The notes under the pieces: model-generated | What the model was told of the DNA's origin: nothing | Databases searched by the model: none | Seen by the model: the letters and a program-made list of their open reading frames with translations, nothing else | Shown here: positions 2,568-36,151 of the stretch, in pieces | How positions within the stretch are numbered: position 1 is the stretch's first letter | How the letters are laid out: each line of letters starts with the position of its first letter | Source of the DNA: a virus | Taxonomy: Duplodnaviria; Heunggongvirae; Uroviricota; Caudoviricetes | Length of the DNA: 36,558 nucleotides | IMG/VR virus record: IMGVR_UViG_2778261416_000006 | Coordinates: 1 to 36,558 of that record | Strand: one strand, 5' to 3' | Program-made: the position numbers and the translations under genes

Positions 2568-2573
2568 TCTTAT

Positions 2574-3218
2574 ATGCCGAGGATCGATGATGAAAAAGAA
2601 TTACTTTGGCATAGCTTAGAGTTTGCTTTATATTTTATGTCAGGTAATGATAAAATCCTTTATAGTCATTTGCTTATAGGAAAAGTTCCATTAGATTTAA
2701 AAAATGATAGTGTTGAGCAATTGTCTATATCAAAACTTTCTTTAGGCGATATAAATATAATACATGATACTATCTTTGTTGATTGTTCGTTTTTTAGCAG
2801 CATATTTACCTGTGGTAATTATAAAAACGTTACATTCGTGAACTGTTCTTTTATAGATTGTAGTTTTAACGAATTAAGTGGTAGGGAAGATATTTATTTT
2901 TTGGGATGTGAATGTGACAATGATGCTATTAATAAAAAATCTGTCGAGATAAACAGTGAAAATGATCACGATATTACAGATTGTGATATTTACATCTTAG
3001 AGAAGTTCTGTCCCAGAGGGAGTGTTAGCTATCATAAGCATCGGCCTATAAAAGGCTTATGTTCTAACAACAATCAATTTCAGTTAAGTGAAATACTCCA
3101 TTCTTTAGATAAATTGAGGAAAGACGGTCTTTTACTTACGCCAGACAAGCGTTCGTTCCTTGAACTTAACATGGCAAGAATATCAGAGATTAAAGCAATT
3201 CTTGGGAGGAATTTCTGA
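2574..3218 (+). CDS. pentapeptide-repeat-like protein
   Basis: Seven consecutive 5-residue units with an aromatic at the same position (FVDCS FFSSI FTCGN YKNVT FVNCS FIDCS FNELS). Starts 7 nt after upstream stop; its stop overlaps the next start (TGATG at 3216-3220). Confidence 0.55.
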   Translation: MPRIDDEKELLWHSLEFALYFMSGNDKILYSHLLIGKVPLDLKNDSVEQLSISKLSLGDINIIHDTIFVDCSFFSSIFTCGNYKNVTFVNCSFIDCSFNELSGREDIYFLGCECDNDAINKKSVEINSENDHDITDCDIYILEKFCPRGSVSYHKHRPIKGLCSNNNQFQLSEILHSLDKLRKDGLLLTPDKRSFLELNMARISEIKAILGRNF

Positions 3219-4123: not shown

Positions 4124-4140
4124 TAACTATCTCCGGCTAT

Positions 4141-4170
4141 TAAGTAGGCCTTGTATTTTAGGCCTACTTA
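4141..4170. terminator. perfect 10-bp inverted repeat (taagtaggcc / ggcctactta) with 10-nt loop, putative operon terminator
   Basis: Read directly; lies 18 nt after the stop of the RelA/SpoT-like gene. No clean T-tract follows, so it could be a protein-binding palindrome instead. Confidence 0.35.
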
Positions 4171-5175
4171 AAAAGTTTCATTATGTGAAGTGATGATGAT
4201 AGCAAATCTGATATCTTTATGGTTGGATGCGAGAAAATATTTTTATCCCGACACAACAACTGGTAATGATAGAAAATTTAAACCCAAAAATGCTACAGTA
4301 GCCTCAGCTCACAAACGGAGTATAAAGTGGCGGTTACTCTTTAGTGGGAATACTGTAGATAGTTGATAAACTGGGCTGGATTTTCTTTTCTAACCGAAGG
4401 GAAGAAAAGCAAGGGGAACCCAAAGAAACAAGCGCAGCGGCTTCGTAGGGTTAGCCCTTGCTTCTTTTATAATTGGCATTATTCATTCAAGAACAATAGG
4501 ATCTTCGCTTGTACAAGCGAAGCTATAATAAAAAATCAATTAATTATTTTAAAAGTATTAAGCAAGAGCCTATTGACATTCGTAAAATAAAAGTTATTTT
4601 TAATGTATGCCATAAATAAAAAGTTTTATGTCATATGTATCCTGCACTATGTGCAGTTAATGTGCCACTTGTCCCATATATGGGAATATTGGAAAGGTTA
4701 CTTTGTTTTGAAGTAGCCTTTCGTCCTTCAATATTCACGATTACTTATTGCTATTACCAAGTCCAGTCGAATCGAAGAACATCTTTTATCTGAAACGACT
4801 CCTAATACCAGGTTGAAGCCACAATATCTCTCGCATAAGTAGACCAAAGAAAAATTATGATATTAACTATGTGATTTTTTTTAGTGTTAAGTTGAATAAT
4901 TATATACTGGAGAGTTTTCTGTACACTACCAATTGCTGGTTCATCTGTTCTGCCGCTGATGTTTCTGACTAATCTCCCGGTGACACAGAACTGTCCCTCT
5001 CTACCAGCCTTTATTCGACTCAATGTCCGGCTGCTGATACGCAGTTATCCCTTCGTATCAATGACTGACTCTTAAACGCAATGCTTTGGTTGCTGGCGTA
5101 TCTGACAGCTTCTTCGGCGTGAAGGTCGTTGTGTAAGTATACTTCTTGGTTTATTTAGGCTATATAAAACCATGA

Positions 5176-6072
5176 CTATGACTGGCTGTTTTCAGTAAGA
5201 GTCTTATCATCCAAAGAATTTATTCTAGAAATTCTTTTTAACTCATTAAGATAATCAACCTCGTTTTCTAAGAACCAATGAAGAACTTTAGAGTTGCCAA
5301 GTAATTTATTAATATATGACTGGATTATAACGAATTTCAACATATCTGAACCATACTCGGTTTGAAGTTTTTTCGTTTCTTCCGAAGTTGTTGCCATTTC
5401 TTGTTCCAGACGAAGTATGGTTTTTTTTATGTCCTTTTTATAGGGAGTGTTTTTCCCTTTATTTACTATCATCGATGACGGTGTTGCATCCAAGATGCTC
5501 ATTGCAAATTTTTTACTATAATTATCAAAATTAATCATTGTACCGACTGCTTCAATTTGACGAATTGGCTTCATTTTCCTCAAAACGTCAAATGTAGCCT
5601 TAGGTATAGGTTTATCAGAAAGTTTCGCAATTACACTTGGATCTATGCCGTTCATCACATTAGCTTTATCTTTTATGGCATCAACAGATATGCCCAAAGC
5701 AGCACTAAGTTTTTCAATTGATACTTTTGCCAGAGACTTAATTATCATTCTATGTTCTTCAACTACATTTATATGATTCACTTGTTTGTTAGGAGTGAAA
5801 GCATCATCTATGCTCGAAAGTATACATGGAGCTTTTTCTATATCTAAGTCTTTTAAAGCCTCAACCCTTAAATGGCCATCAAGTATCTTAGTGACATCTT
5901 TATCTTTGTCATAGAATACTATTATTGGTTCAATAATACCCAAGCTTTCGATAGAGGTAACTATTTGATGATATTTATGGCTTCGCTTTACGTTTTCTAA
6001 TAATTCCTTAGATGGAATTAACTTATTAGTTTCCAGGTAAATAAAATTTTTGCCAAAACGTATCTGAATCAT
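5176..6072 (-). CDS. ParB/sulfiredoxin-fold protein
   Basis: N-terminal ParB-like region with ILDGHLRVEAL (GxxRxxA-type box). ATG at 6072-6070; 4-nt overlap with upstream gene. AT-rich. Confidence 0.55.
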   Translation of the reverse strand: MIQIRFGKNFIYLETNKLIPSKELLENVKRSHKYHQIVTSIESLGIIEPIIVFYDKDKDVTKILDGHLRVEALKDLDIEKAPCILSSIDDAFTPNKQVNHINVVEEHRMIIKSLAKVSIEKLSAALGISVDAIKDKANVMNGIDPSVIAKLSDKPIPKATFDVLRKMKPIRQIEAVGTMINFDNYSKKFAMSILDATPSSMIVNKGKNTPYKKDIKKTILRLEQEMATTSEETKKLQTEYGSDMLKFVIIQSYINKLLGNSKVLHWFLENEVDYLNELKRISRINSLDDKTLTENSQS

Positions 6073-6965
6073 TTTGATACCTCTTTGTTTACTGGGTTTA
6101 ATATCTGAGATGGTAGTTCTGAAAGATTCTCTTGTTCAAGTATATTTTGAAAGCTTTTATTCATCATTATGATGTTAAAAATCTCATTTATTATTAGTAG
6201 ATTGGTTTTTATAAATTTCGAGTTGTTATAAACAGATTTATGTTCAGCGATACTATTTTCATAAAGCTCAATCAACTCCTCTGCAGTCATCCTTTTTGAT
6301 GGTTTGTGATAATAAAATCCGGCTGCTTTTGCACCTTTATTCCCAACTGTTCTTTGATTTAGAATGTATTTTATCTTTATAATGTCCCGACTTTTTATTA
6401 ATTTTTTATCATATGCTTCGGTAAGAATATCTTGTGCTTCCTCAGTTTCACATCTTGCAAATTGCACTGCGAGATACAGAGGCAAATTACCCCGTTCGAC
6501 TGCTGAGAGAAGTTTATGCTCTCCCTTATCAAGAAGCATATTAATACTGCTCACCCAGTTCGATGAATATCCAGTAATCTCACTTATTTCGGAGTCTGAA
6601 AGTCCTCTGATTTTCATGTCTTTAATCACCTGTAATAACTCATTAGAACGTGGTCTTCTCCTTGCAATGTTTTCAACTAAACTCATAACGTAAGCATCTT
6701 CTTCTGATACATCTCTTATAATTGCTGGAATAATAGTTTCACCTAATGCAACAAGAGCCTCTATTCTCCCTTGACCACAAATTAAAGCATATTTGAAATC
6801 GTCTTCATCAATAGCTCTTACGCTTATAGGCTTGCTTAATCCTCTTTTTTTTATGCTTTCCTTTATTTCTTCATGCACTACCTTATTTCTTGTTCGTGGG
6901 TTAAGAAATTTTATTTTTGCAATCTCAATTTGAATTATTGGGAATTCATTTTTTTCAGGCAGCAT
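6069..6965 (-). CDS. ParB-like protein with HTH
   Basis: ParB box-like CGQGRIEAL and LVENIARRRPR, followed by helix-turn-helix-like GLSDSEISEITGYSSNWVSSI. ATG at 6965-6963; overlaps recombinase gene end. Confidence 0.6.
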   Translation of the reverse strand: MLPEKNEFPIIQIEIAKIKFLNPRTRNKVVHEEIKESIKKRGLSKPISVRAIDEDDFKYALICGQGRIEALVALGETIIPAIIRDVSEEDAYVMSLVENIARRRPRSNELLQVIKDMKIRGLSDSEISEITGYSSNWVSSINMLLDKGEHKLLSAVERGNLPLYLAVQFARCETEEAQDILTEAYDKKLIKSRDIIKIKYILNQRTVGNKGAKAAGFYYHKPSKRMTAEELIELYENSIAEHKSVYNNSKFIKTNLLIINEIFNIIMMNKSFQNILEQENLSELPSQILNPVNKEVSK

Positions 6966-8511
6966 ATAGTTCCCTCACTTTCATGCGAGTAATAATTTGT
7001 AGAAATTTATCAAGATTATCAAATCTATAGAGATCTAACCGAATGTTGTTTGTTTCCATCATACACATTTTACTATATTCGTTTTCAATCTTTGGTATGA
7101 TATAAAAATCAAGAGGTGAAATATTTTGTGAATTCATTCGTATAACAATTGTTATGTCTGCTTTCTGTGAGTTATCAAACCGGACTTTCCATCTAAGTTT
7201 ACCTGATTTCATATGTATGCATTTAGTAACAAGGACGGAAATTAAAAACTCATCATTGATGTAAAGCATTGGGTAATATTTATACTCGTCTATATGACAG
7301 TTACTTTTTAATATTTCGCCCTTAAAATCCTCAATTATCTCTGAGTAAAATGATCTTAGTGCTTCATTTATTTGGAGATAGCTGTAATCATGTTCTGGCT
7401 TATAACCAATCAAAGTATATGCTCTTAAAAGACCACCAAATCGGGTTCTATAAACAGAAGATGAAGGGCCTGTATCATCTTCATCAATGATAAAGCCTGA
7501 TAGTTTTCCATTAGATTCTAATTTTTCTTTTAGCTTTTCTAATAGATCTTCATTAGTCAAATGAATGGATCGGAGCTGAATTATTTCTTGAGCTTTATTA
7601 TATTTTTTCTTTGAAATAATTGGTTTATATGCCTTGTCACATCTAATCCATTCATGTTTGGGGTTTTTTACAAGCTTACTTTTTAGTTTAGATGAGGTTT
7701 TGTTATATATGTTGTTTCCAATATATTTTTCATTTGTCAAAATTTGATGTATTTTTGCACGAGTCCATGATGTTCCATTTTCTGCAGGTATGCTCTGTTC
7801 ATTTAATCTCTCAGCAATAATGAATTCTGGGACGTTACTATCTATAAAGAGATCATAGATTCTATTTACAATTTTTATTTCATTTTTTGGTCCCGGAATT
7901 AATATTACCCTATCTGTTTGAATACTCTTTCTTTTGCGGAAATTCAATATTTCTTTAGCTATGCCATTTTCGTCTACTAAAAGACGTCTCAGCCCATAAC
8001 CAGCCATACCGCCTTGATGATAACCAAGCTTTATTAAATTTACTTGCCCTATAAATACCTTTTCAGATAGATTCCTGCTGTGATATGCAGCACTTGATCT
8101 TTTTATATTCAGTATAACAGAGGACTCTAAAGGGAAATCTTTAGTGGGTATAGGTTCGGAACAATATATAAGATCTACACCATTTCTTTCAAATAGAAAG
8201 GAATAATATGCAGCTTCATCACTATTTTGAAAACGACCAAAACGGCTCACATCATAAAATAATACAGCCTGTATATCTATTTTCTTTTGTTCTACATCGC
8301 TAAGTAACTGCTGCAAAGAATGCCTGCCTACGATACTGACTCCGCTCTTACCTGCATCATCGTAGGTATAAGCGATTTCCATATTGTTCTTTTCAGCATA
8401 ATCTTTGATATATTCAGACTGATTATGTAAAGAATATTGCTGATGGTCGGTAGACATCCTCAAGTACTGTGCGACCCTAACTCTATGATTTTTTTCATTT
8501 CCGCTAGCCAT
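6955..8511 (-). CDS. large serine recombinase
   Basis: N-terminal resolvase/invertase catalytic motifs: VAQYLRMSTDHQ (catalytic Ser), YDDAGKSG, LFYDVSRFGR. Length 518 aa fits the large serine recombinase class. Track start 8517 is TTG; ATG at 8511 is preceded by GAGG. Confidence 0.75.
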   Translation of the reverse strand: MASGNEKNHRVRVAQYLRMSTDHQQYSLHNQSEYIKDYAEKNNMEIAYTYDDAGKSGVSIVGRHSLQQLLSDVEQKKIDIQAVLFYDVSRFGRFQNSDEAAYYSFLFERNGVDLIYCSEPIPTKDFPLESSVILNIKRSSAAYHSRNLSEKVFIGQVNLIKLGYHQGGMAGYGLRRLLVDENGIAKEILNFRKRKSIQTDRVILIPGPKNEIKIVNRIYDLFIDSNVPEFIIAERLNEQSIPAENGTSWTRAKIHQILTNEKYIGNNIYNKTSSKLKSKLVKNPKHEWIRCDKAYKPIISKKKYNKAQEIIQLRSIHLTNEDLLEKLKEKLESNGKLSGFIIDEDDTGPSSSVYRTRFGGLLRAYTLIGYKPEHDYSYLQINEALRSFYSEIIEDFKGEILKSNCHIDEYKYYPMLYINDEFLISVLVTKCIHMKSGKLRWKVRFDNSQKADITIVIRMNSQNISPLDFYIIPKIENEYSKMCMMETNNIRLDLYRFDNLDKFLQIITRMKVRELYAA

Positions 8512-8793
8512 GCACAAAACCTCATGGATGATTCAATACAATGTAGAGGATAAAATTGATCAAATTTTAACCGAATTCAACTGTTTTATCATTGATTAGA
8601 GCGAATTTGGTAGTTCTTCGAGGTGTATGATAATCGAGAAGAGATGTGAATTATTTAGCTGATATGACCGACAGCTTTCGTTATGTGGCCTCAAGGTACC
8701 CATTTGTAAATGGCTATGCTTAGTCCACATAGGTTAATGGTGTGATCATTAATTCTTCAAATAAATCAAGATAGTTAACCCATCATGGAAGAG

Positions 8794-10023
8794 TTATGCG
8801 GCAATAACTTTGTATTTTTGAGACGAAACATAGTCACTCCACCATTGCATGAGAACCACACGTTCTGTGAGATACTCTGCACGATTGTAGGCTGCAATTA
8901 TTTCATCTTTTTTCGAGTGGGCAAGGGCGGCTTCTAAGACATCAGTTCTAAACTTGCCACACTCCTCAGCCGCCGTTCTAGCGATTGATCGCATACCATG
9001 AGCTACAAGCTCACCTCCGAAGCCCATACGGATTATAGCCGCATTAGCTGTTTGTTCATGCATGTGATTGAGTGGAGCTTTGATACTGGGAAAAACCCAC
9101 TCTCTATGCCCGCTGATGGCTTTCATTGAATCCAAGACTCGCAAAGATTCTTTGCTCAGTGGAACTTTGTGAGGCTTCTTCATTTTCATAAACTCCGCCG
9201 GGATGTTCCACATGCTGGTTTCTATATCAATATCTGACCATCTTGTGCGAACAGCTTCACCAGGGCGAACCCATGTGAGAAGTTGCCACTCAATCAGTAG
9301 CCTTGTTTCTAAACGGATAGAAGCATTGTTTAGAGCAACCAGGAAGCGGGGGAGTTCGGAAGGGGGTAATGCTGGCATATTCTGTTTTTTTGGCTTGCTG
9401 AACCGTTGCCCCAGGTTGTCAGCCGGATTGAATTCTATGAGTTCTTCTGTTGCTGCATAGCGGAAAATTTCATTCAGGCGGGATATGACGCGGCGAAGTG
9501 TTTCAAGGACACCTCGTTTTTCTATGGGGTCTAAATGCTGTTTAAGCATTTTAGGGCGAATCTCCTTAATGGGGGTATCACCCAACGTTGGAAAGATATT
9601 TCTCTCTAGGCTTCGCCAGATGTCGTTAGCATGATCCTGGGAGATGCCTGACGTTTTGACTTTCTCATCAAGCCACTTCTTGGCTACTGCTTGAAATGTA
9701 TGTTCCGTTGCATCCTTAAGGGCATTGGCTTTGTGGGTGTTATGAACTTGTGGGTCTATACCATTTGCAAGCAACGACAAGTACTCATCACGTAAAGCTC
9801 GTGCCTTCGCAAGTGTAAGGTGAGGATAGGTTCCTAAGCTCACCTTAGTTCGCTTTTTGGTCACAGGCACTGCATATCTGAAATACCAATTTTTCTTTCC
9901 TCCCTTCGCTAAGGGGGCGATTCGCAGGAGCAAACCATCGCCGTCAAAAAGGTTAACCTCTTTCTCGGCAGGTTTGGTGCTTTTGATTTCAGTGTCAGTG
10001 AGCTTCTTAGCGATTTTTGCCAT
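8794..10023 (-). CDS. P4-type tyrosine integrase (IntA/CP4-57-like)
   Basis: N-terminus MAKIAKKLTDTEIK and overall pattern resemble E. coli IntA as I recall it. C-terminal HGMRSIARTAA (HxxR) and AYNRAEYLTERVVLMQWW. Start placed at ATG 10023 rather than track start 10167. Confidence 0.8.
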   Translation of the reverse strand: MAKIAKKLTDTEIKSTKPAEKEVNLFDGDGLLLRIAPLAKGGKKNWYFRYAVPVTKKRTKVSLGTYPHLTLAKARALRDEYLSLLANGIDPQVHNTHKANALKDATEHTFQAVAKKWLDEKVKTSGISQDHANDIWRSLERNIFPTLGDTPIKEIRPKMLKQHLDPIEKRGVLETLRRVISRLNEIFRYAATEELIEFNPADNLGQRFSKPKKQNMPALPPSELPRFLVALNNASIRLETRLLIEWQLLTWVRPGEAVRTRWSDIDIETSMWNIPAEFMKMKKPHKVPLSKESLRVLDSMKAISGHREWVFPSIKAPLNHMHEQTANAAIIRMGFGGELVAHGMRSIARTAAEECGKFRTDVLEAALAHSKKDEIIAAYNRAEYLTERVVLMQWWSDYVSSQKYKVIAA

Positions 10024-10189
10024 GTTTGGGACCCTCATGTTTTGGACCCTTTGTGTTGGGTCCCAAAAAGGGTGCCATAACGAGTAGATTCTAGCAATTC
10101 TCGGTAGACTACTATAGACGTAAAAAAGCCCGCAAGGCTGGTTCCATGCGGGCTTGATAGACTTCACTGAACTTCAATATATCAAAAAT

Positions 10190-11324: not shown

Positions 11325-11894
11325 ATGAACCAGTGCACACAGTGGTTGGGGTATCATGGCACCAGTGTTTTATGTGCTAATTCAATCATTAATACAAATT
11401 TTAATGTCAGTAGACAAGAAAATGATTGGCTTGGTACCGGAGCCTATTTTTTCATTGAGTCGCCGGGATTGTTGGCCCCAGAAGAAAAAGCGGCTCAATG
11501 GGCTAACATTAGGGCTAGTAATGCGAGACCTAACTATACTAATCTAGCAGTGTTAGAAGCTACCATTGAAGTTGAGCAGTATCTTGACTTAGACAATGAT
11601 GAGCACATAGCCGCTCTCAACAAAGTGAGAGAGGTTTACATGGAAATCATGAAGTCTGAGGGTAAGAAACCAACTGGTAACAGATTGTTTGACAAATGCT
11701 GTTTTTGTAACTATGTAATGCATGAGCATGGTATTGACGCCCTGATACGTAAAGAGTATATCAAAACTACAAGAGAGGAGCTTGATTATGGTTTTGAAGG
11801 GGGAGTTCCTAACTGCAGAGTCTTATGCGTTAAAGACCCTAAAGCGAGTGTTAAGTCCATACGATTCGCGGTCGAGAGAAGGAGAGTACGATGA
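11325..11894 (+). CDS. putative ADP-ribosyltransferase-fold (H-Y-E class, PARP/DarT-like) toxin candidate
   Basis: YHGTSVLCANSIINTNF followed by WLGTGAYFF resembles the HG[ST]...GxGxYF signature of H-Y-E ADP-ribosyltransferases; assignment by eye only. AT-rich; stop overlaps next start (ATGA). Confidence 0.45.
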   Translation: MNQCTQWLGYHGTSVLCANSIINTNFNVSRQENDWLGTGAYFFIESPGLLAPEEKAAQWANIRASNARPNYTNLAVLEATIEVEQYLDLDNDEHIAALNKVREVYMEIMKSEGKKPTGNRLFDKCCFCNYVMHEHGIDALIRKEYIKTTREELDYGFEGGVPNCRVLCVKDPKASVKSIRFAVERRRVR

Positions 11895-12256
11895 ACATCA
11901 ATTTATGGCTCGAAAAGACCTTGGACTCTATAAGGTCAACTGATCCGAAAGCTCTCATGGTGAGGATGGAGCGGTATGGATTGATTGAAGATGATGTTAA
12001 TAAAAATAAGGAAATGTCTCATTCTGGTTATGAATATACAGTTTGTGAGGATCTTCCTAGAGAGGTTCCTTTTGCGTCCTATTTTTTCATTGATAACGCT
12101 TCGTATCATGAAGAATCTATAAATGCTTTATCCGTGCAGTTGACTTTCACAACAGCGCCGCGTGAAGCGGCGTTTTCATTGGCTTCACGTCCAGTGTTTT
12201 ATACATCAGAGATTGCTTGTGGAAATTCTCTGGATCATATTGCCCAGGCTGCTTAA
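11891..12256 (+). CDS. hypothetical protein, candidate antitoxin or adaptor
   Basis: ATG 11891 preceded by AAGGAG; coupled to flanking genes. No motif recognised. Confidence 0.45.
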   Translation: MNINLWLEKTLDSIRSTDPKALMVRMERYGLIEDDVNKNKEMSHSGYEYTVCEDLPREVPFASYFFIDNASYHEESINALSVQLTFTTAPREAAFSLASRPVFYTSEIACGNSLDHIAQAA

Positions 12257-12257
12257 T

Positions 12258-12644
12258 ATGAAATTTCAATTAAATAAGAATCAAATAGAAAAGTTAAGTA
12301 TTGAACATTTTATAAATGAATCATCTATTAAAAACAGTTTTTCATTTTCACATACATGCAAGTATGATGAAGAAAAGAATAATGAGTTTATCATTTCTTT
12401 TAAATTTGAACTTACATCTGACAATGGTTTTAAACTTATTTTTACGCATAATTTCTTTTTTGAATGCGATGAACCAATTACAGAAGAGTTTTTACAGTCA
12501 CATTACACATCAGTGAACGCTCCTGCTATTGCCTATCCTTATGTAAGAGCATTTGTGGCAACATTACTTTTAAACGCAGGCTTAGAGTCTGTTTTATTGC
12601 CTGCTGTTAATTTTGTTGAGCATGCTAAATCGCAAGATAAATGA
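12258..12644 (+). CDS. SecB-like chaperone
   Basis: C-terminal AIAYPYVRAFVATLLLNAGLESVLLPAVNF parallels SecB [30 protein letters not shown]. ATG sits 1 nt after upstream stop; the track ORF 12162-12644 is treated as an N-terminal over-extension. Confidence 0.6.
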   Translation: MKFQLNKNQIEKLSIEHFINESSIKNSFSFSHTCKYDEEKNNEFIISFKFELTSDNGFKLIFTHNFFFECDEPITEEFLQSHYTSVNAPAIAYPYVRAFVATLLLNAGLESVLLPAVNFVEHAKSQDK

Positions 12645-12649
12645 TTAAA

Positions 12650-12674
12650 ATGAGAGCAAATAAATTGCTCTCAT
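12650..12674. terminator. bidirectional hairpin terminator between convergent genes
   Basis: 9-bp stem atgagagca / tgctctcat with 7-nt loop, flanked by A-run upstream and T-rich downstream; overlaps integrase stop codon. Confidence 0.5.
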
Positions 12675-13840
12675 TTATACATGATATCATTTATGGTATT
12701 TTCGTTATCGTACTCTTTTAAATATCTTCCATAATGCCTAAATAGCATTTCTGGTCCTTTATGTCCCATTTGTCCAGCAAGCCAAAATAGGTTCGCCCCT
12801 TGACTGATATGGCGAGTAGCGAATGTGTGTCTCGTTTGATATGGATTACGGTATCTGATTCCTGCTTTTCTCAATATTGGCACCCATGCTTTTTTCCTAA
12901 TTGCATCAGCACTTGCCCAGGGTTTATTGGTCTTTGGATCTTCAAAGACAGTAGCATTCTTTATGAATGTAAATGGCTTCTGGTTTATCAACGCCAACAT
13001 TGCTTCTTCAGTCAGTTCAACTTTACGGGTACCGGCTTTTGTCTTTGTTCCTTTGATAACTCCGACAACACTTGCGCTCTGAACATGGGCTGTTTTTCCA
13101 ACAAAGTCGATATCATGCCATCGTAGGGCACATAATTCAGAACTACGCAGGCCTGTATGTATGGCGAACCGGAACAGATTTTCCCATTGTTTGTTTCCGG
13201 CTGCTGCTAGTAATGCATCAACTTCTGCTGGTGATAGCGGATCAACTAAGTAGCTGCTTTCTGCTTCTGACTTATCACTTTGGTAGCGCGAAGCTGTTAC
13301 TAACGATACGGGGTTAATTTGAAGTACCCCATCGGTCACGGCTTCATCAAGTGCTGACCGCAGGAAAGATAACTGGTTGCGAATGGTTTTTAAGGTCGTT
13401 TTCTGGCTTTGAATCCACGCTTTCAGGGTTGCTGGTGTTAATTCACTTGCAGGGCAAATGTGAAGTGAGGCTAACGCACTACGGCATTTTTTATAACCAC
13501 CGATCGTGGATGGTGAAAGTTTCCTCGTTTCGCAGATTTCAAGATATTCGTCTAGGTACATTTTTACCGTTTTGCCAGCGGCAGCATTACCAAAAATTTT
13601 CAAACGAGCAGAACGGGGAAAATATTCTGCATAAATGAATGTTCCCCTTTCGATCTTATTATGGATTTCGCCGAGTGTACGCTCGGCGTATTTAATGTTC
13701 TTTGGTGTTACTTCCAGATTGGAAAGCGGCTCACGACATCTAACTCCTTTGTAGGTGAAAGTTATATTGATCGTTTCTCCTTGGCGGTGTTTCCTGATTG
13801 TTACGCCGCGCGGTAGTTTGAGCAGTTTTGTCTGGCCCAT
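12671..13840 (-). CDS. lambda-type tyrosine integrase
   Basis: C-terminal catalytic region RHTFATRHISQG (HxxR) and MLFRHYGRYL (Tyr); N-terminal arm-binding-like region. ATG at 13840. Confidence 0.85.
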   Translation of the reverse strand: MGQTKLLKLPRGVTIRKHRQGETINITFTYKGVRCREPLSNLEVTPKNIKYAERTLGEIHNKIERGTFIYAEYFPRSARLKIFGNAAAGKTVKMYLDEYLEICETRKLSPSTIGGYKKCRSALASLHICPASELTPATLKAWIQSQKTTLKTIRNQLSFLRSALDEAVTDGVLQINPVSLVTASRYQSDKSEAESSYLVDPLSPAEVDALLAAAGNKQWENLFRFAIHTGLRSSELCALRWHDIDFVGKTAHVQSASVVGVIKGTKTKAGTRKVELTEEAMLALINQKPFTFIKNATVFEDPKTNKPWASADAIRKKAWVPILRKAGIRYRNPYQTRHTFATRHISQGANLFWLAGQMGHKGPEMLFRHYGRYLKEYDNENTINDIMYK

Positions 13841-18796: not shown

Positions 18797-19629
18797 ACAG
18801 TTTAACGGCAAATAACCGTTTGTCGCAACAGCTGGTGGTCAGCGTCGCTGAACACCTGTTGTTACGGCATGAATGCAGATTACCAAATCACCTGGCTGTA
18901 AGTAACCACAGAGAACTTTATCTGACTGTGGGGGGCGAGTTGTGCAGGAACTTAACCGCTGGTTTCGTGACGGAAGAGGGCTTTATGTCCATGTTATTCG
19001 TTGGGAGCCAGAAACACAGCGCGTTATCTATCTTCGCAAAGACTACCCGCATGAGTGCTTTAGTCCTTTGTGGAAATTCAGGCGTGATTTTGTTGAGTGT
19101 GAAGGACCACCAGCACATTGATTCTGCCATTCCGGGACGTTACACTGTTCAGGCACCTTATAAAGCGGGTGCCGGGATTGGCGTCCTGGAATTGCATACG
19201 GCGACAATTGGCGCGTTAGCGTCTTTTTTGTTGCTACAACTCAGCTATACCCAAATTATGGTGGGCTGGGTGGGGGCACCGAAAGGTGCGCCGGTTTCCG
19301 TATGCGCCGGTTACGCCAACCCTGCTCAGTTCACCACCAGCGAAATTGGCGTTTCCGGTGGTGGAAGTTATCCATTGCATACGGAGGCTGCCATCATGGC
19401 TACTGTCCCAGCCCTCTCTCGTCTGAATGATGACGACTTACATAAACTCAGTTATGTAACAACTGCACTACGTGCTCTGCGCAAGGTAACTCTTTCGGAT
19501 CCGCAGGCGCATCAGGTTCTGGTAGAAACCCTTCTTAACTTGCAGGCTGAACGTATTCGTCTGGCGGATAAGGCTAATTTTCATATTCACCGTCTCCTGA
19601 ATATCAGCGGAGGGCATCGTCATGCTTAA
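18793..19629 (+). CDS. hypothetical phage protein
   Basis: 278-aa ORF with ATG overlapping upstream stop (ATGA) and GGAG upstream; composition is unusual (Leu/Ser/Ala/His-rich), so coding status is uncertain. Confidence 0.35.
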   Translation: MNSLTANNRLSQQLVVSVAEHLLLRHECRLPNHLAVSNHRELYLTVGGELCRNLTAGFVTEEGFMSMLFVGSQKHSALSIFAKTTRMSALVLCGNSGVILLSVKDHQHIDSAIPGRYTVQAPYKAGAGIGVLELHTATIGALASFLLLQLSYTQIMVGWVGAPKGAPVSVCAGYANPAQFTTSEIGVSGGGSYPLHTEAAIMATVPALSRLNDDDLHKLSYVTTALRALRKVTLSDPQAHQVLVETLLNLQAERIRLADKANFHIHRLLNISGGHRHA

Positions 19630-22641: not shown

Positions 22642-23631
22642 GTGAGAGCACTACTGACCCCTGAAATAGCCCCGCGTATGGGGATCGTATTGTTCAGGCC
22701 AGGTTCAGAGCTGATGCCCCTGTTTATGCAGGGGCGTGTCCTGCTGGAGCCTGAGCCGGAGCGTTATTCATCTTTCGCCAGTGGTGCCGTTCCGGCGGCA
22801 TCACAACCGCTGGCGGATGATCCTGCCGTTCGGGCCGTGTTCCGCAATGAGGCAGTGATCCGTCGTGCTGGTGGCGTGGAATGTCTTGAAAGCTGGTTAC
22901 TTCGTGAAAAAGGCTGCCAGTGGCCTCATTCCGACTGGCACAGCGAGAACATGACCACAATGCGACACGCTCCGGGTGCAATCCGTCTGTGCTGGCACTG
23001 CGATAACCAGCTGCGCGATCAGTTCACGGAACGGCTGGAATCAATGGCAACGGATAACTGTGCCCGCTGGGTGTTGTCTGTTGTGCGTCGGGATCTCGGT
23101 TTTGATGACAGTCACGTTGTGACAATGCCGGAACTGTGCTGGTGGCTGATTCGTAATGACCTGGCGGATGCCTTACCGGAAAGTGCAGCCCGTAAGGCAC
23201 TGAGATTACCGAAGCCTGTTGTGCCGTCTGCTACCCGGGAAAGTGACCTTGTGCCTTCGGTTCCTGCCACCAGCATCATCCAGGATAAGGCGAAAAAGGT
23301 GCTGGCGCTGAAAGTGGATCCGGAGTCGCCGGAGTCTTTTATGTTACGCCCAAAACGTCGCCGCTGGGTTAATGAAAAGTACACGCGCTGGGTTAAGACA
23401 CAGCCGTGTGCATGTTGTGGAAAGCCCTCTGATGATCCCCACCACCTGATAGGTCACGGTCAGGGTGGAATGGGAACAAAAGCGCATGACCTTTTTGTGT
23501 TGCCTTTGTGCAGAAAGCATCACGACGAGCTGCATGCGGATACCGTGGCATTTGAAGAGAAGTATGGCTCTCAGCTGGAGCTGATATTTCGTTTTATCGA
23601 TCGTGCGCTGGCAACTGGCGTACTGGGCTGA
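22642..23631 (+). CDS. DUF968/HNH-like phage protein (YdfU-like)
   Basis: C-terminal CACCGKPSDDPHHLIGHG ... LPLCRKHHDELHAD is Cys/His-rich and HNH-like. Start is uncertain: GTG 22642 with GAGG upstream, or track GTG 22636. Confidence 0.5.
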   Translation: MRALLTPEIAPRMGIVLFRPGSELMPLFMQGRVLLEPEPERYSSFASGAVPAASQPLADDPAVRAVFRNEAVIRRAGGVECLESWLLREKGCQWPHSDWHSENMTTMRHAPGAIRLCWHCDNQLRDQFTERLESMATDNCARWVLSVVRRDLGFDDSHVVTMPELCWWLIRNDLADALPESAARKALRLPKPVVPSATRESDLVPSVPATSIIQDKAKKVLALKVDPESPESFMLRPKRRRWVNEKYTRWVKTQPCACCGKPSDDPHHLIGHGQGGMGTKAHDLFVLPLCRKHHDELHADTVAFEEKYGSQLELIFRFIDRALATGVLG

Positions 23632-23648
23632 TGTTGTGGAGAAAGTTG

Positions 23649-23990
23649 ATGCGTGACATGTATGAAGTTTTGGACCGCTGGGGAGCATGGGCTGCAGCAG
23701 ATAACAGTAGTGTGGACTGGCAGCCGATAGCAGCAGGCTTCAAGGGGCTTTTACCTCATGGTAAAAAAACACGTCTCCAGTGTGATGATGATGAAGGGAT
23801 CATGATAGACGGTTGTGTCGCACGGTTACGTAAATATAAACAAGAAGAATATGAGCTAATAATTGCCCACTTTGTTATTGGTATTTCATTACGCGCCATT
23901 GCGAAGAAGCGTAAGTGTTCTGATGGGACAATTAGAAAAGATATGCAAACAGCATTAGGTTTTGTTAGTGGTGTGCTATCAATGCTATGA
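23649..23990 (+). CDS. late-gene antiterminator Q (QuuD-like)
   Basis: MRDMYEVLDRWGAWAA ... WQPIAAGFKGLL ... QCDDDEGIMIDGCVARL resembles DLP12 QuuD as recalled. Start at ATG 23649 with GGAG upstream. Confidence 0.75.
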   Translation: MRDMYEVLDRWGAWAAADNSSVDWQPIAAGFKGLLPHGKKTRLQCDDDEGIMIDGCVARLRKYKQEEYELIIAHFVIGISLRAIAKKRKCSDGTIRKDMQTALGFVSGVLSML

Positions 23991-23994
23991 TTAT

Positions 23995-24014
23995 AAGAGG
24001 CCTTAGGGCCTCTT
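23995..24014. terminator. hairpin between convergent Q and cargo genes
   Basis: 8-bp stem aagaggcc / ggcctctt with 4-nt loop; no clean T-tract. Confidence 0.4.
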
Positions 24015-24016
24015 TA

Positions 24017-24760
24017 CTAAATTACTTGGATGATGAAAGAAACAATCAATGTTGCTAAACCACCAATAGCAGATACTTTAAATTCCGAACCACGAAATAC
24101 CATCTTCCCATTGACCTTTATATTATTTGCAATGAATGGTGATATTCCAACGGCCGCACTCATGAAATATAAAGAAGAAATCATTTTCTTTTGAAACTCA
24201 TTCAAGTCTGGCATTAACAGTGTAATTGATAAAAAAATACAAAAACTTAAAAATCCAATAATAGCAGTGACAATTAATTTCCAATTCATTGGGGTACCTA
24301 TAGTAAATCCATCGATTGGCAATTTTCGAGACTCAAATTCCGCAATAATAGCGGTGTAAATATCTTTTGATGAGTACTTTTTAATGATTCTTTGGATGTT
24401 TGATAGACCATCTTTGCTATACAATACAATATTGTCTGGATCAATTTTTAGGTGTTTAATGTTTGCCACCATCATGTCGTAGTATTCTAAATAAGTTTCC
24501 AGAACTGCTCGACAGTCTCCAGCTAACGAAATGGCGAATGTCTTATTGTCATCCAGTTTACATAAATCTACTTTTTGAACTAACTTAACAGCGGTATTAA
24601 AATATTTTGAAGCATGCTGCTGAACTTCATGTAGGTCAGCAAGGTTTGATATACCGCCATTACGCACGTATGGCTGAATACCACGTAAAAATCTTTCCTT
24701 TGCAGAAGTCAGCTCCGACGTTACTTCGTCGGGGCTGATCTGAAACACATCATTATTCAT
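24017..24760 (-). CDS. membrane protein with two C-terminal transmembrane segments (cargo gene)
   Basis: Hydrophobic stretches WKLIVTAIIGFLSFCIFLSITLLMP and VSAIGGLATLIVSFIIQVI; AT-rich; opposite strand to phage late genes; start overlaps upstream gene stop. Confidence 0.5.
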   Translation of the reverse strand: MNNDVFQISPDEVTSELTSAKERFLRGIQPYVRNGGISNLADLHEVQQHASKYFNTAVKLVQKVDLCKLDDNKTFAISLAGDCRAVLETYLEYYDMMVANIKHLKIDPDNIVLYSKDGLSNIQRIIKKYSSKDIYTAIIAEFESRKLPIDGFTIGTPMNWKLIVTAIIGFLSFCIFLSITLLMPDLNEFQKKMISSLYFMSAAVGISPFIANNIKVNGKMVFRGSEFKVSAIGGLATLIVSFIIQVI

Positions 24761-25020
24761 TTTTGTTTTGGTGCCAGCATTCTTAATGCAGTGTTAAGAT
24801 CAGAGTTGTCCACACTTTCAGTGATTAAGAATTGGGTATTGGGAACATGACGGCTGATAATGCCTTGGAGCATGCTACGACTTATAACTTTACCACTTTG
24901 AAGCGCGGAGTTAATGTCATTTTGTATCAAAGTGATTTCACGCTCGGTACAGGGGAAACCCCACCGAGTAACATTTGCATATTCACCAATTTTTTTCTTA
25001 AATTCTAGGTAGTTACTCAT
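24757..25020 (-). CDS. small soluble protein (87 aa), first gene of the cargo cassette
   Basis: ATG-initiated, AT-rich, coupled to the membrane-protein gene. Confidence 0.45.
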   Translation of the reverse strand: MSNYLEFKKKIGEYANVTRWGFPCTEREITLIQNDINSALQSGKVISRSMLQGIISRHVPNTQFLITESVDNSDLNTALRMLAPKQK

Positions 25021-25138
25021 TGCAGTTCTCCTTGTTTGTAACCACGTTAATCATATCAAAAAGCAAAATAATAAAAAACTAACGCGTACGCAAAAAGTAT
25101 TGTATCGTGTTAAGAGTGGTTACTTCGCCACGCAGCTT
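25021..25138. promoter_or_regulatory. putative late promoter (pR'-like) region, also the divergent promoter region of the cargo cassette
   Basis: Inference from position between Q and the lysis genes; TTGTAA/TTGTAT -35-like hexamers present but no promoter could be defined precisely. Confidence 0.3.
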
Positions 25139-25162
25139 AAACCCGTCGATGAGCGGGTTTTG
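25139..25162 (+). terminator. tR'-like hairpin terminator
   Basis: aaacccg tcgatgag cgggttt followed by tg and T-rich sequence, upstream of the holin gene. Confidence 0.4.
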
Positions 25163-25311
25163 TCGTCTCTGGCCCGGCTGTTAGTTGGGCTTGGCCTATC
25201 CCGCAGTTATCCATTTGCTCGGCTTCTTTGACGTTTCCGCTTCTGATTTGCGGTTCCTGATATTCCCTCAATTTGCACCTGCTGTATCAGCAAGGTGAGA
25301 GATAACTATAA

Positions 25312-25641: not shown

Positions 25642-26118
25642 ATGCAGGCACTAAATTCCCAGCGTAAAGCTTTCCTGGATATGGTGGCATGGTCAGAAGG
25701 AACGGATAACGGGCGACAGCCGACACGTAACCACGGTTATGATGTTATTGTTGGTGGCGAACTGTTCACTGATTACTCCGATCACCCTCGCAAACTTGTC
25801 ACGCTAAACCCCAAACTCAAATCAACAGCTGCCGGACGTTACCAGCTTCTTTCACGCTGGTGGGATGCTTACCGTAAACAGCTTGGCCTGAAAGATTTTT
25901 CTCCAGAAAGCCAGGACGCTGTAGCTCTGCAGCAGATTAAAGAGCGTGGTGCTTTACCGATGATTGACCGCGGCAGTATTCGTCAGGCAATCGACCGTTG
26001 CAGCAATATCTGGGCGTCGTTACCTGGTGCAGGTTACGGTCAGTATGAACATAAAATCGGTGACCTGATTGCCCGATTTAAAAAAGCTGGTGGGGTAGTA
26101 AATGAAGCTGAGATATAA
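25642..26118 (+). CDS. R: endolysin, lambda R-type lytic transglycosylase
   Basis: Near-identity over long stretches with lambda R as recalled (NSQRKAFLDM..AWSEGTDNGRQ.TRNHGYDVIVGGELFTDYSDHPRKLVTLNPKLKST.AGRYQLLSRWWDAYRKQLGLKDFSP); AGGAG 6 nt upstream. Confidence 0.9.
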   Translation: MQALNSQRKAFLDMVAWSEGTDNGRQPTRNHGYDVIVGGELFTDYSDHPRKLVTLNPKLKSTAAGRYQLLSRWWDAYRKQLGLKDFSPESQDAVALQQIKERGALPMIDRGSIRQAIDRCSNIWASLPGAGYGQYEHKIGDLIARFKKAGGVVNEAEI

Positions 26119-26620
26119 GCTGGTTATTGTTGCCTTCGTTGTTAGCGTCATTGGTTCCTTCATCTGGTCTGCTGGGCATTACTACAGCAAATATCAGCAC
26201 GAAAAGGAGCGTGCTGATGAGGCTGTACGAAATGCTGAATCAGCAACTGCCATTACCCGTAACGTTCTGCAATCACTGCAAATCATCAATACAGTTATAG
26301 AGGCTAACCAGCATGCAAAACAGCAGATCGCACTGGAGTCACAGAGAACCCAGGAAGATATCAAAGTGGCTGTTGCGGATGATGATTGTGCTTCACGTCA
26401 TGTGCCTGCTGCCGCTGCTGACCGGTTGCGGAAGTACGCGAACAGTTTACGTACCGATTCCGGCGGTAATCAAGTAGGGTTATTGAGTGGTAAAGTTTGT
26501 GCTGAATGTAGGAGAGAATATGAAGAAAATGTTTATATTGTTGTTGGCTGCAGGACTGCCATTAAACTCCTTTGCGAAGCCAGTAACGGAAAAGCAGCTT
26601 GCTACATACTTTATAGATAA
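26102..26620 (+). CDS. Rz-like i-spanin with foreign C-terminus, probably disrupted
   Basis: N-terminal transmembrane segment and Rz-like body up to about codon 122; from about 26468 the frame runs into AT-rich DNA encoding unrelated Cys-rich sequence. Confidence 0.45.
   Translation: MKLRYKLVIVAFVVSVIGSFIWSAGHYYSKYQHEKERADEAVRNAESATAITRNVLQSLQIINTVIEANQHAKQQIALESQRTQEDIKVAVADDDCASRHVPAAAADRLRKYANSLRTDSGGNQVGLLSGKVCAECRREYEENVYIVVGCRTAIKLLCEASNGKAACYILYR
26382..26477 (+). pseudogene. Rz1-like o-spanin remnant (lipoprotein signal then premature stop)
   Basis: Embedded +1-frame ORF MIVLHVMCLLPLLTGCGSTRTVYVPIPAVIK with lipobox LTGC but only 16 residues after the Cys, ending at the AT-rich junction. 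Confidence 0.4.
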
Positions 26621-27008
26621 CGTTAAAACTTCAGCAGATAAGAATATAGATCTAGATGTAGGGGGAATAAATAGACTGTCTGTAATATGCCCAGCAAAGT
26701 CGGCAAGTGGAACTCTTTTAATAAAAAAAGCATCCTACGAGTTTAATAAAGGCATTGGTGTTTTTGATTTTGAAAATAACTCACAATCTGCACCATTGGC
26801 TTTTATTGTACCAATTAGTGAGGATGAAAATAACTTTGACTCGGAAATTATTGGTTTCTCTTTTGCATTTAAAATGCCAAGAGGGCAATTCTTTGTTGAT
26901 GTTACGAAATCAGGGAAGGTAAAGGCTGGCGTAAATATTAGTGGTGAAAGCGGAATTACTTATTCATCATGTAGAATAGATACTCATAATGTTGATTATG
27001 ATCTTTAA
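26520..27008 (+). CDS. secreted protein with Sec signal peptide (cargo gene)
   Basis: MKKMFILLLAAGLPLNSFA signal-like N-terminus; AGGAGAG upstream of ATG 26520; AT-rich; own terminator downstream. Confidence 0.55.
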   Translation: MKKMFILLLAAGLPLNSFAKPVTEKQLATYFIDNVKTSADKNIDLDVGGINRLSVICPAKSASGTLLIKKASYEFNKGIGVFDFENNSQSAPLAFIVPISEDENNFDSEIIGFSFAFKMPRGQFFVDVTKSGKVKAGVNISGESGITYSSCRIDTHNVDYDL

Positions 27009-34303: not shown

Positions 34304-34666
34304 ATGCTTATTGGCTATGTACGTGTGTCAACAAATGACCAGAACACAGATCTACAACGTAATGCGCTGAACTGTGCAGGATGCGAGCTGATTTTTGAAG
34401 ACAAGATAAGCGGTACAAAGTCCGAAAGGCCGGGACTGAAAAAACTGCTCAGGACATTATCGGCAGGTGATACGCTGGTGGTCTGGAAACTGGATCGACT
34501 GAGGCGCAGTATGCGGCATCTTGTCGTGCTGGTGGAGGAACTGCGCGAAAGAGGCATCAACTTTTGCAATCTGACGGATTCAATTGATACACAGTATCTT
34601 GTTAACACCAACACATGGCTGCAGGAGGGATATTATCGGTACCCGATTTCAGGATACAGCGCCTGA
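34304..34666 (+). pseudogene. pin: truncated DNA invertase (Pin/Hin/Gin family)
   Basis: MLIGYVRVSTNDQNTDLQRNALN ... VVWKLDRLRRSMRHLVVLVEELRERGINF matches the catalytic domain of Pin; similarity ends near residue 96 (about 34592) and the C-terminal HTH is absent. GGGAGA upstream of ATG. Confidence 0.7.
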
Positions 34667-34725
34667 TTAGACTAAAGAGGGGCTATATTGTAGAGTTTGC
34701 TAAAGTTTTTTATAGGGTTAAGCAA

Positions 34726-35796
34726 ATGACAGTCAGGAACTACACTAATTTAAATTTAGATCGGACAACTATTGAGGCTACGTCTAGGGCATTTATTGAA
34801 AATAAAAACTATTCCGTCCATTCAATTGGACCAATGCCTGGTGCAAGAGCAGGACTTCGGGTTGTGTTTGCTAAACCAGGAGAAGCTTTGGCAACTGTTA
34901 ACATTTTCTATAATAACGGAGGGACGTCTACAGTCCAGTATCAAACAGGAGCTAATCATAATCTTGGAAAAGAGTTGGCTGATGATCTCTATGAAACCAT
35001 CAATCCTGCAGAATTTGAACAGGTAAATATGGTGTTACAAGGGTTCGTTGAAGCGAACGTTTTATCTGTACTTCAGCTCTCAGCAGAGCAGCCACATATA
35101 CAATTTTACGAATACTTACGGAACACTCATACAACGGTGTGGAAAATTCATTCGCCAGAATTTCAGGATGAGTTGACAGTTAGTCTGCATCACAGAAATG
35201 GAACACTACAAATACAAGGGCGTCCATTGTCATGTTATAGAGTGTTTATATTCAACTTGTCAGAGCTACTCGATTTACAAGGACTGGAAAAAGTTCTCAT
35301 TCGTCAGGATGATGGCAAAGCGTATATAGTTCAGAAAGAAGTTGCTCGCTCACATCTAGAGTGTGAAATGGGGGATGCGTACCCACTATTGCATAAGAAT
35401 GTTGAAAAATTGCTCGTTTCTGGGCTGTGTGTTAAACTCGCCGCCCCCGATTTACCCGATTACTGTATGTTGTTGTATCCTGAATTACGTTCAATTGAGG
35501 GAGTACTTAAATCAACAATGTACCGATATGGCATGCCAATCACGCAGGATGGTTTCGGGCCTTATTTTGATAAAATTGGGAGTGAATTTATTCTGAAACA
35601 ACAATTTGGATGCAATTTATCGTCAGCTAAGGTTAAGACCATTAATGATGCCTATACTTTCTTTAACAGAGAACGTCATGGCCTGTTTCATATGGAGATA
35701 GTTGTCGACACAAGCCGTATGGTTTCTGACATGGCACGACTGATGACTAAGGCCAGACAGGCATGGGGAATTATTAAGGATTTGTATATTGTTTGA
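34726..35796 (+). CDS. rnlA: RnlA-like toxin (endoribonuclease of the RnlA-RnlB system)
   Basis: 357 aa from ATG 34726; N-terminus MTVRNYTNLNLD and internal segments such as EKLLVSGLCVKLAAPDLPDYCMLLYPELR and WGIIKDLYIV match E. coli RnlA as recalled. AT-rich. Confidence 0.65.
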   Translation: MTVRNYTNLNLDRTTIEATSRAFIENKNYSVHSIGPMPGARAGLRVVFAKPGEALATVNIFYNNGGTSTVQYQTGANHNLGKELADDLYETINPAEFEQVNMVLQGFVEANVLSVLQLSAEQPHIQFYEYLRNTHTTVWKIHSPEFQDELTVSLHHRNGTLQIQGRPLSCYRVFIFNLSELLDLQGLEKVLIRQDDGKAYIVQKEVARSHLECEMGDAYPLLHKNVEKLLVSGLCVKLAAPDLPDYCMLLYPELRSIEGVLKSTMYRYGMPITQDGFGPYFDKIGSEFILKQQFGCNLSSAKVKTINDAYTFFNRERHGLFHMEIVVDTSRMVSDMARLMTKARQAWGIIKDLYIV

Positions 35797-36151
35797 AATA
35801 ACAGGTGTTAACGTCTCAGGGGCTCTCATTGCCGTCGTTATGGCGACTGGCTACGAGAACCCCTTGACTTCAGTTCACGAAATCGAGAAGAGGCTTTCTG
35901 TTATACTGGGCAATTCACAGGCTACAGGTGAGGTTTTGTTTGACCTTTTGTGTTCTAATGGTCCAGAGTGGAATCGCTTTGTTTCGCTGGAAATAAGGTG
36001 TGGCAGTATTTTGCTGGATACTGCCAAAATTGTGGATGAGCAAGAAATTCCAGCGCAGATCTTGAGACATCAGAGAGATGTATTACGTAACCACCCTGAG
36101 TACGTAGAAGACTCTGTGTTAACACCAGATGATGTTCTTTGTATTCTCTAG
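35789..36151 (+). CDS. rnlB: RnlB-like antitoxin
   Basis: FEITGVNVSGAL ... LFDLLCSNGPEWNRF ... LRNHPEY resembles RnlB as recalled; start appears to be TTG overlapping the rnlA stop. Confidence 0.6.
   Translation: MFEITGVNVSGALIAVVMATGYENPLTSVHEIEKRLSVILGNSQATGEVLFDLLCSNGPEWNRFVSLEIRCGSILLDTAKIVDEQEIPAQILRHQRDVLRNHPEYVEDSVLTPDDVLCIL

Follow-up and report, generated by a model that had tools for sequence, protein, structure and literature searches.

A two-gene cassette lies on the minus strand, at 24,017 to 25,020, of a 36,558-nt stretch of viral DNA (Caudoviricetes; positions 1 to 36,558 of IMG/VR record IMGVR_UViG_2778261416_000006), hereafter called the window, within a lambdoid E. coli prophage and between its antiterminator Q and holin genes. 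The cassette encodes a small protein of 87 amino acids (aa) and a membrane protein of 247 aa, which together we rate as a new protein family with unusual small paralogous subunits, within the familiar class of membrane-effector modules borne on mobile genetic elements. Judging from sequence and genomic context, we give a probability of roughly one-half to the reading that the cassette is an autonomous, horizontally mobile prophage cargo that most likely serves against phages, through abortive infection or exclusion, and belongs to an undescribed family. The evidence set out below includes the variable slot that the cassette occupies in related prophages, the strict linkage of its two genes across distant bacteria, and the mobile and defense contexts in which its homologs are found.

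Organization of the cassette

The two reverse-strand open reading frames (ORFs) picked out in a sequence-only reading of this DNA are both present, the small-subunit gene (87 aa) at 24757–25020 and the large-subunit gene (247 aa) at 24017–24760, both on the minus strand. The TGA stop of the small gene and the ATG of the large gene share an ATGA overlap at 24757–24760 of that strand. An AAGGAG Shine-Dalgarno sequence stands at 25028–25033, 7 nt 5′ of the ATG of the small gene, and the large gene has no such sequence of its own; a strong signal on the first gene and none on the second fit translational coupling, in agreement with the earlier description of a soluble 87-aa protein coupled to its larger partner. 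The description of the cassette as AT-rich likewise holds, with a GC content of 35.9% (32–36% at third codon positions), the DUF968 gene standing at 55.7% and the holin gene at 53.5%, or about 36% against 53–56% in the flanks. Because the pair is kept in three genera, shows low ratios of nonsynonymous to synonymous substitution rates (dN/dS), and belongs to a family of 79 representatives, as detailed below, it cannot be attributed to chance reading frames.

On its left, the cassette is convergent with the antiterminator Q gene (23631–23990, plus strand; PF06530, E=2.6e-45), a RefSeq relative of which is annotated as "antiterminator Q family protein". On its right, 290 nt past the cassette, comes a lambda-family holin gene (E=3.2e-25), followed by a lysozyme gene and an Rz-like gene. 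The intervening DNA contains a conserved noncoding segment upstream of the holin (25079–25311, plus strand), with a hairpin followed by a T-run at approximately 25140–25165. Its first part, approximately 25079–25161, is 94% identical to unannotated DNA of Stx2a phages and is conserved across the E. coli, Klebsiella, and Citrobacter loci, while the neighboring sequence is not. As the segment is conserved and holds both the hairpin and the T-run, we infer that it comprises a late (pR′-like) promoter and a short-transcript terminator, and the placement of the cassette between Q and the late promoter is upheld to this extent, with the PF06530 Q gene on the left and the late-promoter-like segment, then the holin, on the right.

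Two further candidate elements were read by eye. The 26-nt gap separating the convergent Q and large genes is occupied by a 7-bp GC-rich hairpin (AGAGGCC-TTAG-GGCCTCT, 23996–24013) that could act as a bidirectional terminator for both genes. Approximately 30 nt upstream of the ATG of the small gene, and back-to-back with the late-promoter region, lies an extended −10-like element, TGATATGAT (25050–25058, minus strand), a candidate promoter for the cassette; alignment places a TGnTAnnnT counterpart at the same position in the variant E. coli allele and in the Klebsiella and Citrobacter loci. A consensus scan for promoters and terminators found no more sites than in shuffled sequences and called neither TGATATGAT nor the hairpin, the terminator consensus demanding a longer T-run and the promoter scan being a two-hexamer search; because the scanner called neither, both are marked here as by-eye readings.

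A variable slot between Q and the holin

The sequence-only reading had placed the cassette at a classic cargo position, and the contents of the same slot in sibling prophages strongly support this. Across Klebsiella, Citrobacter, and E. coli, the pair is always convergent with a PF06530 Q gene and upstream of a holin, even where the right flank differs. The Q family is present in 353 of 5426 complete E. coli genomes, but the cassette is found in only 21 of these, with a Q at least 90% identical. In a sample of the other Q-bearing E. coli genomes, sibling prophages with a Q about 80–90% identical and the same holin hold at least 10 unrelated cassettes in the slot, nearly all on the reverse strand. 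The same Q family and holin thus bracket unrelated cargo, and because other Q-bearing genomes fill the slot with such cargo, the cassette is not tied to Q function.

Several of these occupants are of interest in themselves. The commonest alternative observed is a reverse-strand pair of a 273-aa soluble protein and a 160-aa membrane-like protein with a weak DUF4064 match (loci L023, L024, and L081; for example, L023 4426–5754). Neither Pfam nor PADLOC holds a family for this pair, which is a second uncharacterized candidate with a layout similar to that of the window cassette. Other occupants are a 264-aa protein with a methyltransferase (L028), a metallophosphoesterase of more than 986 aa (L082), a nucleoid-associated protein with a 392-aa protein (L083), proteins of 238 and 190 aa with an MBL-fold hydrolase (L084), a cytosine methyltransferase with a HEPN-like nuclease and a DUF262 protein (L085 3935–6793), and pairs of 340 and 194 aa (L086) and of 292 and 128 aa (L087). 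One further slot holds, by RefSeq annotation only, a TIR-domain protein with a caspase-family protein (L088 3900–5277); type IV Thoeris is built in this way, from TIR and a caspase-like protease (10.1101/2024.10.24.620036; PMC13243611). Judged by these contents, the Q–holin slot of this lambdoid group appears to be a defense hotspot.

An ancient module of small and large genes

In an indexed search, the large protein drew only seven clusters and the small protein eight, every one of them enterobacterial and named "hypothetical protein", including P0001, a cluster 100% identical to the large protein of the window and so named throughout. The single more specific name encountered, a JGI label of "cell division ATPase FtsA" on one small-protein cluster, has no domain support and was ignored. 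An exhaustive profile search extended the large-protein family to 79 representatives at the 50% level, most of them 245–270 aa long and of the same full-length architecture. The large protein matches PHROG 5814 (E=4.4e-15, residues 11–221 of 247) and the small protein PHROG 31842 (E=1.8e-7, residues 7–80 of 87), both labeled "unknown function", so that membership in either gives a label and not a function.

The linkage of the two genes is strict. Wherever the upstream sequence is long enough, each lineage shows between one and three small-family genes directly 5′ of the large gene on the same strand. Among species-representative genomes from several phyla, the linkage is present at 40 of 40 loci (two small genes at 27, three at 3, and a single one at 10, five of the last being cut by contig ends), and no small-family gene occurs elsewhere in these 40 loci; all 9 lineages looked at before the genome scan behave likewise. 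Phage-borne versions, in lambdoid prophages and in the P2-like phage DC1, have a single small gene. The small paralogs cluster by position across lineages and not by locus, so they represent ancient, distinct subunit types, and the small–large pair is an ancient module.

The module also moves and evolves quickly. Proteins 63–82% identical are present in Zeta-, Gamma-, Beta-, and Epsilonproteobacteria, which points to horizontal transfer, and viral contigs yielded nine members of the enteric version vs one of a distant subfamily. Comparing the window with the Klebsiella and Citrobacter loci, amino acid identity is 87% for Q but only 47–52% for the small protein and 53–57% for the large one. Against an E. 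coli allele 92–93% identical to that of the window, dN/dS is 0.24 for the large gene, 0.45–0.57 for the small gene (from few substitutions), and 0.09–0.10 for Q. By these measures the module is constrained yet much faster-evolving than the adjacent Q gene.

A few members replace or extend the C-terminus, an effector-like variability that we count in favor of a defense role. In P0091, the N-terminal domain and one transmembrane (TM) segment are followed by a PGAP1/DUF676-type alpha/beta-hydrolase in place of the usual C-terminus. Some other members (P0069, P0055, and P0075 among the variants) have three TM segments plus extra C-terminal domains, that of P0069 being DUF3298/RsiV-like by a weak match (E=1e-4) far below the cut-off; given the N-in topology suggested below, such extra domains would be periplasmic. 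A separate variation is seen in Pseudomonas inefficax (L068 4660–8639), where two whole modules stand in tandem and the second fuses two small domains in one ORF (7372–7914).

Database searches gave no known identity to either protein. Pfam and NCBIfam contain no family for either one or for distant family members; the Pfam membrane effector domains (SLATT, Rex, Abi, and similar) include none that the window protein matches at E≤0.1, and across 66 family members Pfam returned only scattered weak TM-type matches. Searches of PDB sequences with profiles from both alignments gave nothing below E=0.1, and fold comparison revealed no specific fold relative for either protein. A homologous family of non-defense function, which would have spoken against the defense proposal, was thus found neither in Pfam and NCBIfam nor among PDB sequences. 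Nor did the PADLOC search that the sequence-only reading had proposed match any defense-system component: PADLOC-DB v2.0.0 gave a spurious DndH match (E=0.007) for the large protein, nothing for the small protein, and nothing for the distant members P0017, P0105, and P0099 or their small partners. Literature searches with RefSeq accessions and PHROG identifiers yielded no paper on the two proteins.

Homologs in mobile and defense contexts

Outside lambdoid prophages, the module recurs in a range of mobile or defense settings. DC1, a viable P2-like phage isolated by Rousset et al. (PMC9122126), carries the small and large genes on the opposite strand between a tail-fiber assembly gene (PF02413) and the sheath gene. 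This is the position of P2 fun, which has been described as a second defense-enriched locus of P2 (Vassallo et al., PMC9519451) and as the Z/fun hotspot (preprint 10.1101/2024.10.15.618418). Elsewhere, the module lies in an integrase/AlpA/Toprim-VapE island (L019) and beside HsdR of a type I restriction-modification system, a Schlafen-like ATPase, RadC, FRG, and an IS66 element (L021). In L026 it directly follows a Gabija-like pair and a TIR protein and adjoins integrases and a SMODS nucleotidyltransferase, in L027 it adjoins an integrase, and on a P. aeruginosa plasmid it has Hachiman HamA as a neighbor.

At 43 loci, the two closest neighbors on either flank, 150 genes in all, were tallied in a census. 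They comprised 7 tyrosine integrases, 2 resolvases, 2 IS91 transposases, 3 GajA (E to 1e-206), 3 gop-beta-cII beta and 3 gop-beta-cII cII proteins, 2 KAP NTPases, 2 HEPN/Toprim proteins, and 3 ImmA/IrrE peptidases, together with some housekeeping genes, among others. A tblastn comparison of the GajA-like gene of L026 with the three census GajA hits found no similarity. In raw counts, then, the module is recurrently adjacent to defense genes and recombinases. The suggestion that the cassette belongs with abortive-infection and superinfection-exclusion systems accordingly gains from context (P2 Z/fun, integrase islands, Gabija, Hachiman, restriction-modification, and gop-beta-cII) and gains nothing from homology, as the PADLOC search matched it to no known defense family.

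Protein features and a proposed mechanism

The large protein consists of an all-alpha N-terminal domain (codons 1–155; 24296–24760, minus strand), which is the conserved core of the family, and a membrane region (codons 160–247; 24020–24283, minus strand). The sequence-only reading had given it two C-terminal TM helices; the membrane assignment stands, but hydropathy and an AlphaFold2 model both count three. Hydrophobic segments fall at residues 162–180, 193–211, and 229–247, the third being Gly-rich, and three are seen in most of 66 family members, although the middle one of the window protein passes only at a lower threshold. In the AlphaFold2 model, a helical N-terminal domain (approximately residues 10–155, predicted local distance difference test score [pLDDT] 80–90) is followed by helices at 160–182, 188–210, and 232–246. 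The loop between the second and third segments is the most basic, with 4 Lys/Arg in the window protein and a family mean of 2.6, and this charge distribution suggests an N-in/C-out topology. The N-terminal domain carries the family motifs YFN, (A/G)(E/D)C..(V/I)L, MQR (Q123-R), and LP..GF; Q123 and G151 are invariant in the family, and K21, F54, C83, and P148 nearly so.

Small proteins of the family are 77–88 aa long, with isoelectric points (pI) from 4.7 to 10.4. AlphaFold2 models that of the window as four helices and a short beta element (pLDDT 75.7). It carries the C-terminal motif VDNSDLNTALR, of a DNSDL type that is invariant in the family, and the small paralogs all retain a C-terminal (V/L)D(N/T)(S/T)DL..L.

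It is plausible that these features combine as follows. Transcription of the cassette would start at a promoter of its own that points away from the late promoter, so that the genes could be expressed in the lysogen. The 247-aa protein would be anchored in the inner membrane and would expose its 155-aa helical domain to the cytoplasm, and the 87-aa protein, probably made in excess through translational coupling, would bind this cytosolic domain through its invariant C-terminal DNSDL helix and hold or tune it. An infection cue may then alter the complex, releasing or switching it, whereupon the three-helix region, with its Gly-rich third segment, would oligomerize and compromise the membrane, and the incoming phage would be stopped at the cost of the cell or its entry blocked. 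Abortive infection would be the expected outcome, exclusion at entry being less likely. A bolder and distinctly tentative extension of this scheme is that the cassette could be a version, pared down in phages, of a hitherto unrecognized membrane immune module with several subunits and a distribution across phyla, in which one to three small, helical, anciently diverged subunits, each with a DNSDL-type helix at its end, would sit on the cytosolic domain of a three-helix effector, a type of sensor or gate without a characterized counterpart.

Comparison with known systems

RexA/RexB of lambda is a prophage abortive-infection pair of one soluble and one inner-membrane protein encoded outside the late operon. 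The cassette resembles it as a two-gene prophage module of a soluble and a membrane protein, with presumed expression in the lysogen and a proposed cytosolic control of a membrane effector. It differs in having no Pfam or PADLOC sequence match; in its Q-proximal position, RexAB lying in the immunity region; in its tiny soluble partner (87 aa), of which the family has one to three ancient paralogs; and in a membrane protein with a 155-aa cytosolic domain and three hydrophobic segments, not four.

A second likeness is to systems with TM partners from the P2 and P4 hotspots, such as a HAD-hydrolase with a TM protein, the TIR and TM proteins of AC1, and P2 fun (PMC9122126, PMC9519451). The TM proteins of these hotspot systems have been proposed to be suicide effectors, and, more generally, the suicide effector of a known system is usually its TM partner (PMC9122126). 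The cassette shares with them the form of a short, reverse-oriented, AT-rich cargo and, through DC1, a homolog in a fun-type locus. Unlike them, it has no homology to their PADLOC models and no enzymatic or signaling partner (TIR, hydrolase, or reverse transcriptase), only small helical proteins. The Tai tail-assembly interference system was also considered and is unrelated, as it concerns orf63/64 of phi80, in the late operon.

Weighing the defense reading and its alternatives

In favor of an anti-phage role, alongside slot, linkage, mobility, and context, we count the faster evolution of the cassette than of Q, the common part of TM proteins as suicide effectors, and the presence in the same prophage of a CmdTAC-like chaperone match and an RnlA toxin. 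Several observations pull the other way. Searches of Pfam, PADLOC, PDB, and folds found no sequence or fold similarity to known defense proteins. Among four P2-like phages, Rousset et al. (PMC9122126) reported protection for the AC1 lysogen only; the lysogen of DC1, whose homolog is 22% identical, is thus without reported protection against eight phages. The census counts come without a background control, the three GajA genes may stem from related Pseudomonas loci, and housekeeping genes adjoin some loci. The candidate promoter and terminator of the cassette were not called by the scanner. Finally, hotspots hold non-defense cargo too, as seen with iss/bor near lysis genes and CDT in P2.

An alternative that we consider unlikely is a toxin–antitoxin or addiction module, in which a membrane toxin and a labile small antitoxin would stabilize the prophage or island without dedicated phage sensing. 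The cassette has the co-directional adjacent genes and the overlapping stop and start (ATGA) of type II systems, with the small, antitoxin-like gene first and a 4-nt overlap. The module is found exclusively on mobile elements, has VapB and HigBA genes as neighbors in two loci, and remains intact here in a prophage that lost its head and tail genes. The small protein, however, shows no helix-turn-helix (HTH), ribbon-helix-helix, or other recognizable antitoxin domain. A locus with two or three small paralogs that diverged long ago is atypical for antitoxins, the pI of the small proteins spreads from 4.7 to 10.4, and the putative toxin would span the membrane several times and have a large domain in the cytosol. 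Addiction and abortive infection are in any case not mutually exclusive functions.

Nonsuicidal superinfection exclusion has about the same low standing. Here the inner-membrane protein would block entry of the phage genome, as membrane exclusion proteins of other prophages do, and the small protein would be an assembly or stability factor. The prophages encode this inner-membrane protein at positions where exclusion genes are also housed, P2 fun occupies the same P2 locus as the DC1 homolog, and a reverse-strand cargo with a putative promoter of its own is compatible with expression in lysogeny. Yet most members reside in non-phage islands of very diverse bacteria, where an entry block would face unrelated phages, and a large conserved cytosolic domain with cytosolic partners suggests intracellular sensing.

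A membrane signaling or envelope function unrelated to phages, be it anti-sigma-like sequestration of a small cytosolic regulator or a lysogenic-conversion fitness factor, is improbable. The succession of cytosolic domain, TM segment, and, in some members, an extracytoplasmic domain (DUF3298/RsiV-like or alpha/beta-hydrolase) does resemble transmembrane signaling proteins, and a partner gene immediately upstream recalls sigma/anti-sigma pairs. The likeness to RsiV-type anti-sigma factors is confined to the variant P0069, with its N-in cytosolic domain, membrane span, and DUF3298/RsiV-like extracytoplasmic domain, but this match is weak, falls in a C-terminal extension absent from the window protein, and comes with no sigma partner. 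Sigma factors are longer than the small proteins, which show no match to a sigma (including sigma-70 regions 2 and 4), HTH, or regulator family and which vary widely in pI; most members have no extracytoplasmic domain, and the association with mobile elements and defense genes is strong.

Still less probable is a counter-defense role, with the module inhibiting a host defense. Phage hotspots do hold anti-defense as well as defense genes (preprint 10.1101/2024.10.15.618418), but most members are chromosomal or island-borne, beside defense genes and in non-phage contexts, and a membrane protein encoded on the non-late strand with its own promoter would be unusual for an anti-defense gene. Control of late genes or lysis by the phage itself, as an antiholin-like factor or Q modulator, might be suggested by the constant position in E. 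coli, Klebsiella, and Citrobacter, where a PF06530 Q always adjoins the pair and the holin always lies downstream. The cassette, however, is encoded on the strand opposite to the late transcript and is not part of it, preceding both the late-promoter segment and the holin, and Q alleles 85–88% identical carry unrelated cargo. The distribution of homologs, which takes in the tail-gene hotspot of a P2-like phage as well as non-phage islands that have neither Q nor lysis genes, essentially excludes such a role.

Other features of the window and prophage

The window holds further candidate defense loci. An ORF at 12162–12644 (plus strand, 160 aa) matches the chaperone component of CmdTAC (PD-T4-9; E=7.9e-35) and is preceded by ORFs at 11325–11894 (189 aa) and 11891–12256 (121 aa); together, 11325–12644 (plus strand) looks like a toxin–antitoxin–chaperone defense trio beside the prophage integrase (12671–13840). 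At the far end of the prophage, past the tail-fiber genes, a second cargo site carries an RnlA/RNase LS toxin (393 aa, all four domains, E to 1.5e-33), a known anti-phage toxin–antitoxin type, with a 120-aa ORF overlapping the end of its gene in the position of the RnlB antitoxin (34615–36151 for both, plus strand); PADLOC gave no model hit for this RnlA-family locus. To the left of the prophage is a separate integrative element (1104–10167) with two ParB/RepB proteins, a large serine recombinase, and a tyrosine integrase. It includes a co-directional trio (1104–4123) of an NA-iREase2 protein (487 aa, E=8e-34), a 214-aa protein of no assigned function, and a RelA/SpoT-domain protein (301 aa, E=3e-15), which looks like an undescribed conflict system and for which PADLOC gave only a weak PDC-S33 match.

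The prophage itself has lost approximately 13 kb, from terminase to tape measure, a stretch that in relatives encodes terminase, portal, capsid, sheath, and tape measure. When it is aligned with an intact relative (L001), homology to the lysis region stops at 26468, within an Rz-like ORF (26102–26620) that has an aberrant C-terminus; an AT-rich ORF (26487–27008, 35% GC; PHROG 5586, of unknown function) and then Mu-type DNA-circularization and baseplate genes follow. One genome, H45, at first seemed to share the deletion, but its match was joined over adjacent prophages and was rejected. In the early region, Rfam matches isrK (61 bits) and, adjacent to it, C4 antisense RNA (81 bits) at 19153–19341 (plus strand), a P1/P7-type antisense immunity element.

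Conclusion

Should the cassette prove protective, it would add to bacterial immunity a new family with two domains of unknown fold relationship and unusual small paralogous subunits, and would establish the slot between Q and the late promoter as a hotspot that can be mined for defense genes, like those of P2 and P4. At 1 kb, the module is easy to clone, and its presence in E. coli, Salmonella, Klebsiella, Citrobacter, and Pseudomonas gives it relevance for the host range of phages and for their use in therapy.

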